Assembly (NCBI RefSeq): GCF_048403405.1
Contig: NZ_CP183129.1
Length of the DNA stretch: 64,000 nucleotides
Direction: 5' to 3' (one strand)
Source: Escherichia coli
GTDB taxonomy: Bacteria > Pseudomonadota > Gammaproteobacteria > Enterobacterales > Enterobacteriaceae
The notes under the pieces were generated by a model, which saw only the letters and a program-made list of their open reading frames with translations, had not been told where the DNA came from and searched no databases. A program made the position numbers and the translations under genes. Positions 831 to 10,202 of the stretch are shown in pieces (the first letter of the stretch is position 1; each line of letters opens with the position of its first letter).

Positions 831-872
831 GAAATCATTAGTTTCACTTCGCAATTTTGCCATTCCATTGCC

Positions 873-889
873 GTTGATAATAGGTTTAT
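873..889 (+). promoter_or_regulatory. candidate PhoP box (direct repeat GTTGAT-N5-GTTTAT) upstream of pmrD
   Basis: Hexamer direct repeat with 5-nt spacer about 50 bp upstream of the pmrD ATG; imperfect match to the (T/G)GTTTA-N5-(T/G)GTTTA consensus. Confidence 0.3.
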
Positions 890-939
890 CTGTTAATCTG
901 TAAATTAATGTGAAAATTCTTATCAAGCAGGGTGGTGCA

Positions 940-7410: not shown

Positions 7411-8568
7411 TTATTGTCCTGCGAGTTGCTGAAGGGCTGTGATGACGCGGTCGGCATCGGCGGTAGTCATATCCGGAAACAGCGGCAACGAACAGATGCG
7501 TTCGCTATTCCATTCGGTATTCGGTAACGACAGCGTGGGAAAACGCTCGCGATAATATTTTTGTGTGTGAGCGGCGCGGAAATGTAACCCGGTACCAATA
7601 CCTCTTTCTTTTAACGCTTCCATCAACGCATCGCGACTGATACCACAACGTTGTTCATCGACACGAATAATAAACAGATGCCAGGCGTGAACGTGCGGCC
7701 AGGCGGGAAGGCTTAATGGCTGAAAGGGGAGAGCTGCCAGTGCTTGCTGATATTGCTGGGCAATTTCGCGCCGACGGGTGTTGAGGTGCTCTAATTTTGC
7801 TAACTGTGTCAGGGCAATCGCGGCGTTAATATCGGTCAGATTGTACTTATAGCCCGGTGTTAAGACTTCAGCTTGCGGTGCACGGCCCCAGGTTTGTCTG
7901 TCATAGGCATCGACACCCAGACCGTGAAATTTCAGCATCCGTAGCTGGCGGGCAAGGTTTTCATTATCTGTAACAATCAGGCCACCTTCCGCACAGGTAA
8001 TATTTTTGATGGCGTGAAACGAAAAAATAGCGGTACCTTTTGTGCCAATATGTCGCCCTTTGTAATACGTACCGACGGCATGGGCAGCATCTTCGATAAC
8101 TGCGATGCCGTAACGTTCGCCAATGGCGCGAATGGCGTCAATATCTGCTGGCGCACCGGCATAATGCACCGGAATGATGGCTTTAGTGCGTGGCGTAATG
8201 GCTGACTCGATCGCTTCAGGCGTGACCATCAGCGTATCGTGGTCGACATCCACCATTACCGGCGTTGCACCCAACAAGGAAATCATATTGAGGGTTGAAA
8301 CCCAGGTCAGGGAAGGCGTAATCACTTCATCGCCCTTGCCAATTTCCAACGCCATTAGCGTGATATGCATTCCGGCGGTGGCTGAACTGACCGCGATGGC
8401 ATGCTGATTTCCCGTCAACTGGCAAAAGGCTTGTTCAAGCGCCTGATTCTTCGGACCGGTTGTGATCCAACCGGATTCGAGAACCTCTTTAACTGCAGCG
8501 AGTTCCTCCACGCCCATTGCTGGTCGCGAAAAAGGCAAAAATTCTGACATTGCTTTTCCTTCCGCCAT
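7411..8568 (-). CDS. arnB: UDP-4-amino-4-deoxy-L-arabinose--oxoglutarate aminotransferase
   Basis: DegT/ArnB-type PLP aminotransferase ORF (track 7411..8583); exact start uncertain. Confidence 0.85.
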
Positions 8569-8635
8569 TGAATACCTGTCCACTTATATTTGCTATAAAG
8601 AGTGTTGTGTATATTTTGCCATTTGGAGCAAAATT

Positions 8636-8665
8636 TTAAGGATAGAATATTAACTTAACCTTAAG
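8636..8665 (-). promoter_or_regulatory. candidate BasR/PmrA box (CTTAAG-GTTAAG-TTAAT) in arnB-ais divergent promoter
   Basis: Minus-strand reading cttaaggttaagttaat resembles YTTAAK direct repeats of PmrA boxes; lies upstream of arnB. Confidence 0.4.
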
Positions 8666-8857
8666 AAACTAATATTAGACGTAAATATTGAAATTTTTAT
8701 ATTTTTTCTTATTTAGGCTTTGCATTTGGCAAAATTTTGAGGCATTTTGCCGGCATCGCAGGATTTTTAATATTACACCAACTGCTAATTATCGCCAGAA
8801 ATGTCGCTCAATTTCACGGTAATTGTCTGGTTGCGCTTGTCTATAGGTGGAGTTTAC

Positions 8858-9924: not shown

Positions 9925-10202
9925 AGGGGTATTCCTTATAAATTAAAAGAAACCATGAGAATACGGTAACTCAGAAATATGTGAAAGTGACAGTAATCTC
10001 TTTTGCGATGATAACTGCACTTATTATTATTTTTGTGTGTATCGATAAAGTGTGTTTATTTTTTCGGCGTTTAATTATTTAAGAAGTATTTAGTTACAAT
10101 AAGTGACTAGATCCCTTTTTTCGCTCATTGAATCCTCTGTGCCAGGCAGTACAATCCCGCAGCTTTGGGAATTTTGATTTATTGCTTGTGGGAGAGGGAA
10201 AA

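Follow-up and report, generated by a model that had tools for sequence, protein, structure and literature searches.

The PhoP box of the Escherichia coli pmrD promoter: confirmation of a catalogued site and variation among its alleles

The direct repeat at positions 872-888, upstream of pmrD in the stretch of 64,000 nucleotides of Escherichia coli DNA that we analyzed (the window), is the already catalogued PhoP box of pmrD. A preliminary description had proposed a possible PhoP box here; this observation was confirmed by a match that is unique in the window, takes the top PWM rank, is conserved and is orthologous to a footprinted Salmonella box, and the interpretation is supported and known. 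What this analysis showed directly is the presence of the motif, the geometry, the conservation and a PWM score that stands out. We are highly confident in the reading as a whole, which is that the pmrD promoter has its PhoP box at 872-888 and that PhoP-P activates transcription from it in class II style. The features concerned are the following.

Up to 830, + strand: 3' end of menE, with its stop codon at 828-830 (RefSeq annotation of strain 7/2)
826-842, + strand: repeat ATTAAG-aaatc-ATTAGT, tentatively similar to a PmrA/BasR box; it overlaps the stop codon of menE, and the PhoP box follows 46 bp downstream
872-888, + strand: PhoP box, consisting of CGTTGA (872-877), the spacer TAATA (878-882) and GGTTTA (883-888), from sequence, PWM and conservation
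889-900, + strand: 12-nt gap from the box to the -10, the defining distance of PhoP architecture I promoters, with an invariant TG at 899-900
901-906, + strand: predicted -10 hexamer TAAATT, aligning with the Salmonella -10 TAACGT; T901, A902 and T906 are invariant in 15 promoters
912-913, + strand: predicted transcription start at G912 or A913, placed by comparison with the Salmonella start known from S1 mapping; A913 does not vary among the aligned promoters and A914 hardly does
929-935, + strand: putative Shine-Dalgarno-like AGGGTGG, read and placed from the sequence upstream of the pmrD ATG
940-1206, + strand: pmrD coding sequence, 88 aa plus stop, from the list of open reading frames
8649-8665, - strand: canonical PmrA box CTTAAG-gttaa-GTTAAT between arnB and ais, a zero-mismatch match
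arnF-E-T-D-A-C-B, then ais, nudI and yfaZ: the arn operon, on the - strand, and the genes that follow it (RefSeq annotation, strain 7/2)

The sequence GTTGATAATAGGTTTAT has a single exact occurrence in the window, on the + strand at 873-889. Read as GTTGAT-aatag-GTTTAT, it is one base off the usual (T/G)GTTTA-N5-(T/G)GTTTA notation, and in the usual register the second half-site of the box is perfect and the first carries two mismatches, so that 10 of 12 positions match. The imperfect fit to the consensus that had been remarked on is therefore real. Half-sites of the GTTGA type are also found in the footprinted Salmonella boxes of ompX, ugtL and virK (Zwir 2012, PMC3335776). From the end of the box to the pmrD ATG at 940 there are 51 nt, in agreement with the earlier estimate of about 50 bp. 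The range first given for the site, 873-905, was right at its start, allowing for the shifted register, while its end takes in the spacer plus most of the -10 hexamer.

The gene downstream was identified with confidence. The open reading frame at 940-1206 is PmrD by the NCBIfam equivalog NF011994 (167 bits; cut-off 96), and its product is 97% identical to K-12 PmrD, from which it differs at N11D, M20K and A27T. Strain 7/2 (NZ_CP023820.1) is 100% identical to the window over 780-1260, and its RefSeq annotation also names pmrD across this compared stretch. An in-frame GTG at 910, which would give a 98-aa open reading frame, was considered as the pmrD start and rejected; it lies upstream of the predicted +1, and the ATG at 940 fits all orthologues. 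An intact pmrD, which the PhoPQ-PmrD-PmrAB connector circuit requires, is thus present 3' of the box. The stretch 780-1260 was matched in 5419 of 5426 complete E. coli genomes, and the pmrD region of the window is about 93% identical to most of them, making this an unusually divergent locus for E. coli.

A search with the degenerate motif KGTTTA-N5-KGTTTA, allowing up to two mismatches, returned 22 matches in the window against 13.2 ± 3.8 expected and had no discriminating power. Because the loose consensus was uninformative, we used a PWM built from footprinted sites, namely 19 nt across 25 DNase-footprinted Salmonella activation PhoP boxes (Table 1, Zwir et al. 2012, PMC3335776), with pmrD left out of the training set to prevent circularity. 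The PWM window 871-889 scored 16.9 bits and ranked first among 127,964 positions on both strands; in mononucleotide-shuffled windows, 0.05 positions reached at least this score. The training sites themselves ranged from 9.7 to 22.3 bits, and the Salmonella pmrD box scored 14.7 bits, below the site in the window. In the menE-pmrD intergenic region there was no second PhoP-PWM match of at least 9.2 bits, the cut-off of the top 25, and the nearest other match among those listed, 601-619, falls inside menE. High PhoP-PWM matches near 63.4-63.7 kb were dismissed, as they lie inside the ompC coding region and not in its regulatory region.

The predicted anatomy of the promoter agrees with activation from this position. 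In Salmonella, S1 mapping placed the pmrD start 5 nt beyond the -10, so that the leader is 27 nt long (Zwir 2012, PMC3335776). From the alignment to that promoter we infer the -10 at 901-906 and a pmrD +1 at G912 or A913, which would make the leader 27-28 nt long. The -10 TAAATT is identical in all sampled E. coli alleles. At 17-bp spacing from it the hexamer is TAATAG, which matches TTGACA at one of six positions, leaving no usable -35. A generic sigma-70 scan of the region upstream of pmrD found no + strand promoter, as expected for an activator-dependent promoter that lacks a -35. On the - strand the same scan turned up one promoter-like match, TTTACA-16-TATTAT (904-877), formed by the box region read in reverse complement; we attributed it to chance, with one such match found and 1.1 expected.

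The preliminary description had also suggested that the site could overlap the -35 region, and the box does occupy the place of the -35, 12 nt upstream of the -10. Architecture I promoters have one direct box, 11-12 nt from the -10 and lying over the -35, and are predicted to be activated in class II fashion; in Salmonella they include pmrD, mgtA, phoP, slyB and yrbL (Zwir 2012, PMC3335776). The promoter in the window likewise has one direct box, which overlaps a poor -35 and stops 12 nt short of the -10.

To assess conservation, we retrieved 18 pmrD loci via PmrD alignment from one-genome-per-species contigs, and aligned 15 promoter sequences from four genera (Escherichia, Citrobacter, Salmonella and Intestinirhabdus). 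They share the arrangement xxTTGx-N5-xGTTTA, 12 nt ending in TG, and TAnnnT, which was seen in Escherichia sp., E. albertii, eight Citrobacter species or strains, S. enterica subsp. arizonae and diarizonae, and Intestinirhabdus alba. Among the intergenic bases identical in all 15 are T874, G876, G884-A888, T899-A902, T906 and A913. Of the 109 intergenic positions, 18 belong to the half-sites and the -10, and these 18 hold ten of the 17 invariant columns (hypergeometric P = 1.2 × 10−5). Loss of the site in relatives had been named in advance as an outcome that would speak against it; instead, it is kept in the 15 promoters. Within E. coli, a 60-nt promoter core is present in 5417 of 5426 complete genomes. 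We compared six alleles nucleotide by nucleotide (the window, K-12 and four further strains); their half-site cores and -10 are unchanged, and they vary at 881-883, a stretch made up of spacer bases and the opening base of half-site 2.

Two of the retrieved loci call for separate comment. In Escherichia sp. MOD1-EC7003 (L003) the first half-site is CGTCGA, and the box scores only 7.7 bits by the PhoP PWM. A 3.1-kb contig from a metagenome-assembled genome labelled 'Citrobacter sp.' (L002, DXKH01000101.1) is 98% identical to the pmrD of the window and has a nearly identical promoter, and a genuine Citrobacter-type pmrD is carried by another contig of this assembly, of 235 kb (L008). The 3.1-kb contig probably entered the Citrobacter sp. 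bin as E. coli contamination.

Comparison with mapped PhoP sites, the check that had been proposed at the outset, gave a consistent picture. The Salmonella pmrD PhoP box, CTATTGCCGTTTTGTTTAT, was DNase-footprinted (Kato 2003, as given in Zwir 2012, PMC3335776), and it aligns base for base with CCGTTGATAATAGGTTTAT of the window. The K-12 allele of the site is in the list of PhoP sites used for submotif learning by Harari et al. 2010 (PMC2908699, Fig. S2), where the entry for pmrD, marked 'E. Coli', gives CCGTTGAT and GAGTTTAT separated by three dashes. A PhoP box is also marked in Fig. 2 of Huynh & McPhee. Binding of PhoP to the allele of the window, which has G883 where K-12 has A883, is predicted from the comparison.

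The literature also reports PhoP-dependent expression of K-12 pmrD, along with the biochemistry of PmrD. According to citing papers, E. coli pmrD shows PhoP-dependent expression in low Mg2+ (Winfield & Groisman 2004). When PhoP levels were set optogenetically in E. coli, a PpmrD-gfp reporter followed them (PMC13215669), and in a Shigella ΔphoPQ mutant pmrD is lowered to 0.48x. In Klebsiella pneumoniae, PhoP binds PpmrD directly by EMSA (Cheng 2010, PMC2919465). Discordant with these reports is the transcriptome of an E. coli W3110 ΔmgrB strain, in which phoP is 7.6-fold up and phoQ 6.7-fold up, yet pmrD is at 0.31x (PMC8355897). This fall in pmrD is the opposite of what simple activation by PhoP predicts and is unexplained. 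Induction of pmrD independent of PhoPQ has also been reported, by a later study as cited in PMC13215669. Our literature search for E. coli PhoP ChIP or whole-cell binding data over pmrD found nothing usable.

These discordant reports bear on one alternative, namely that the conserved bases are those of a core promoter only, made up of a -35-like TTGATA (874-879), an A/T-rich spacer and the -10, with PhoP dependence being indirect. TTGATA matches TTGACA at five of six positions, an analogous alternative -35 (TTGCCG, with a 21-bp spacer) has been given for Salmonella pmrD (Zwir 2012, PMC3335776), and both the PhoPQ-independent induction of pmrD and its decrease in ΔmgrB, as far as these are related in the sources above, would fit. 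However, a 21-bp spacer is beyond the working range of sigma-70 promoters, and the invariant GTTTA at 884-888 (15 of 15 sequences), which would lie inside that spacer, is left unaccounted for. The footprint of PhoP on the Salmonella orthologue and the direct binding of Klebsiella PhoP to PpmrD also argue against indirect control. We consider a bare core promoter very improbable.

A PhoP box at 872-888 is also the better account when another regulator of the OmpR/PhoB family with an 11-bp hexamer periodicity, such as PmrA/BasR or RstA, is considered as the main binder. PhoP and PmrA boxes are alike in architecture, to the point that the PhoP PWM gives the arnB PmrA box 9.07 bits, and the second-best PhoP-PWM match in the window (10075-10093) is PmrA-like as well. 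The half-sites at 872-888 are GTTGA and GTTTA, though, and not TTAAG and TTAAT, the score falls in the upper part of the range that true PhoP sites cover, and the published regulation is PhoP-dependent, which together leave such a regulator scarcely credible as the main binder. A functionless chance match in A/T-rich intergenic DNA is just as hard to credit, since matches to the loose consensus are common (22 against 13 expected) but this site ranks first by PWM (0.05 expected), has the exact geometry of architecture I, is conserved across four genera with P of about 1 × 10−5 and appears in published site lists.

With 872-888 taken as the PhoP box, regulation would proceed as follows. PhoQ would sense low Mg2+, antimicrobial peptides or acid pH, leading to phosphorylation of PhoP, and PhoP-P would bind CGTTGA-N5-GGTTTA as a head-to-tail dimer, in place of the missing -35. 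From there it would recruit RNA polymerase in class II style (architecture I, Zwir 2012). A transcript starting at about 912 would then have a leader of some 27 nt and encode PmrD, a protein of 88 aa. PmrD would in turn shield phospho-PmrA from PmrB, so that the PhoPQ signal could reach promoters with a PmrA box, for example that of arnB.

The window contains a candidate for this last target. The canonical PmrA box at 8649-8665 sits about 100 bp upstream of the arnB ATG (8550), and the arnB-ais region (8551-8857) holds no PhoP box, its best PhoP-PWM score being that of the PmrA box itself. Because arnB has a PmrA box and lacks a PhoP box, any input of PhoPQ to arn would have to be indirect, via PmrD, as in Salmonella and unlike in Klebsiella. 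The preliminary description had linked PhoPQ to the arn pathway through PmrD in the same way. The first part of that link holds, in that PhoP-dependent transcription of pmrD is well reported in E. coli; activation of PmrA and arn, in contrast, is condition- and strain-dependent in the literature. Reports on the step from PmrD to PmrA in E. coli conflict, with the step described as non-functional in K-12 (owing to a strong PmrB phosphatase) or as functional under some conditions. According to this literature the PmrD-to-arn step in E. coli depends on pmrB and on conditions, which leaves the identity of the box unaffected.

Elsewhere in the window, TTATTTAAGAAGTATTTAGT at 10075-10094 on the + strand, about 110 bp upstream of the yfaZ ATG (10202), is the second-best PhoP-PWM match, with 15.2 bits. 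It also fits the PmrA-like pattern TTTAAG-N5-TTTAGT and abuts a TACAAT hexamer at 10095-10100. A literature search on regulation of yfaZ by PhoP or PmrA found nothing specific.

The pmrD promoter varies within E. coli in ways that touch both the PhoP box and the repeat upstream of it. Position 883 is G, the consensus base, in the window and A in K-12 and most E. coli, and the PWM scores are 16.9 and 13.3 bits, respectively. The repeat at 826-842 has one mismatch per half against the Salmonella PmrA box consensus CTTAAG-N5-xTTAAT; the match is weak, as this motif class has 14 matches in the window against 7.3 expected. At the aligned position several Citrobacter have ATTAAG-N5-ATTAAT, and the repeat is shared positionally with E. 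albertii. The Salmonella counterpart, ATTAAT-N5-GTTAAT, sits 11 bp closer to its PhoP box. The K-12-type allele lacks the PmrA-like repeat (AATAAT-taacc-CTCCGT). Citing papers state that Salmonella pmrD is repressed by PmrA via a box upstream of the PhoP box (Kato 2003), and by analogy the repeat at 826-842 may be a feedback-repression site specific to one allele of pmrD.

The segment 811-870, which covers this repeat, is present exactly in 1085 of 5426 complete genomes (about 20%), including an O25b:H4-ST131 strain, and at 81.7% identity in 268 more; at the E-value cut-off applied, no match was returned for the others, and K-12 differs from the window at 11 of the 60 bases. Over 811-940 there are at least three pmrD promoter haplotypes in E. 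coli (loci L001 and L020-L023). That of the window is found exactly over 861-920 in 439 genomes. A recombinant haplotype (L020) is of the window type through 906 and of the K-12 type downstream, and falls within the 95-99% identity band of 682 genomes, and the K-12 haplotype accounts for the majority.

In sequence, the window-type allele is similar to those of E. albertii and Citrobacter. It is conceivable from these sequence comparisons, if unlikely, that E. coli is naturally dimorphic at the pmrD promoter, with about 20% carrying an ancestral-type allele with a better PhoP box and the PmrA-like repeat, and a K-12-type majority having lost the repeat. If both differences were functional, the window-type allele would be expected to give stronger induction of pmrD in low Mg2+ and a Salmonella-like negative feedback by PmrA. 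Such a dimorphism, if true, could help explain the conflicting reports on, and strain variation in, the wiring of PhoPQ to arn-mediated polymyxin resistance.

The pmrD PhoP box is the point at which the PhoPQ signal of low Mg2+ or antimicrobial peptides would enter PmrD, and from PmrD it can reach PmrA-controlled modification of lipid A (the arn operon, and with it tolerance to polymyxin and colistin). Because the Salmonella circuit has been textbook knowledge since 2000-2003 and that of E. coli documented since 2004, confirmation of the box adds annotation value only. The aspect of possible interest is the difference between the allele of the window (about 20% of E. coli) and that of K-12, in the quality of the PhoP box and in the PmrA-like repeat.

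Among known systems, Klebsiella pneumoniae pmrD also has a PhoP box ahead of the gene, and its expression depends on low Mg2+ and PhoP and is independent of PmrA (Mitrophanov 2008, PMC2565834). The genomic context differs, however, and Klebsiella pbgP/arnB has a PhoP box of its own, forming a feedforward connector loop that is absent in the window. A second known system is the promoter of Salmonella enterica pmrD. In both Salmonella and the window, pmrD lies at the orthologous position between menE and the arn operon behind a single direct PhoP box, which is followed after 12 nt by a TAAnnT -10; a usable -35 is lacking, the leader is about 27 nt long, and the first half of the box is xxTTGx (submotif S2), the second GTTTA. 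They differ in the first half-site (CGTTGA in the window, TATTGC in Salmonella), in the spacer (the A-rich TAATA versus CGTTT) and in the -10 (TAAATT versus TAACGT), and the PmrA-like repeat of the window is 11 bp farther off and a poorer match (ATTAAG-N5-ATTAGT versus ATTAAT-N5-GTTAAT). A third is the pmrD box of K-12, CCGTTGAT-aaa-GAGTTTAT, from which the window differs by three substitutions at 881-883 (TAG in the window, AGA in K-12), two in the spacer and one in half-site 2; the site is the same, and half-site cores, -10 and distances are all shared.
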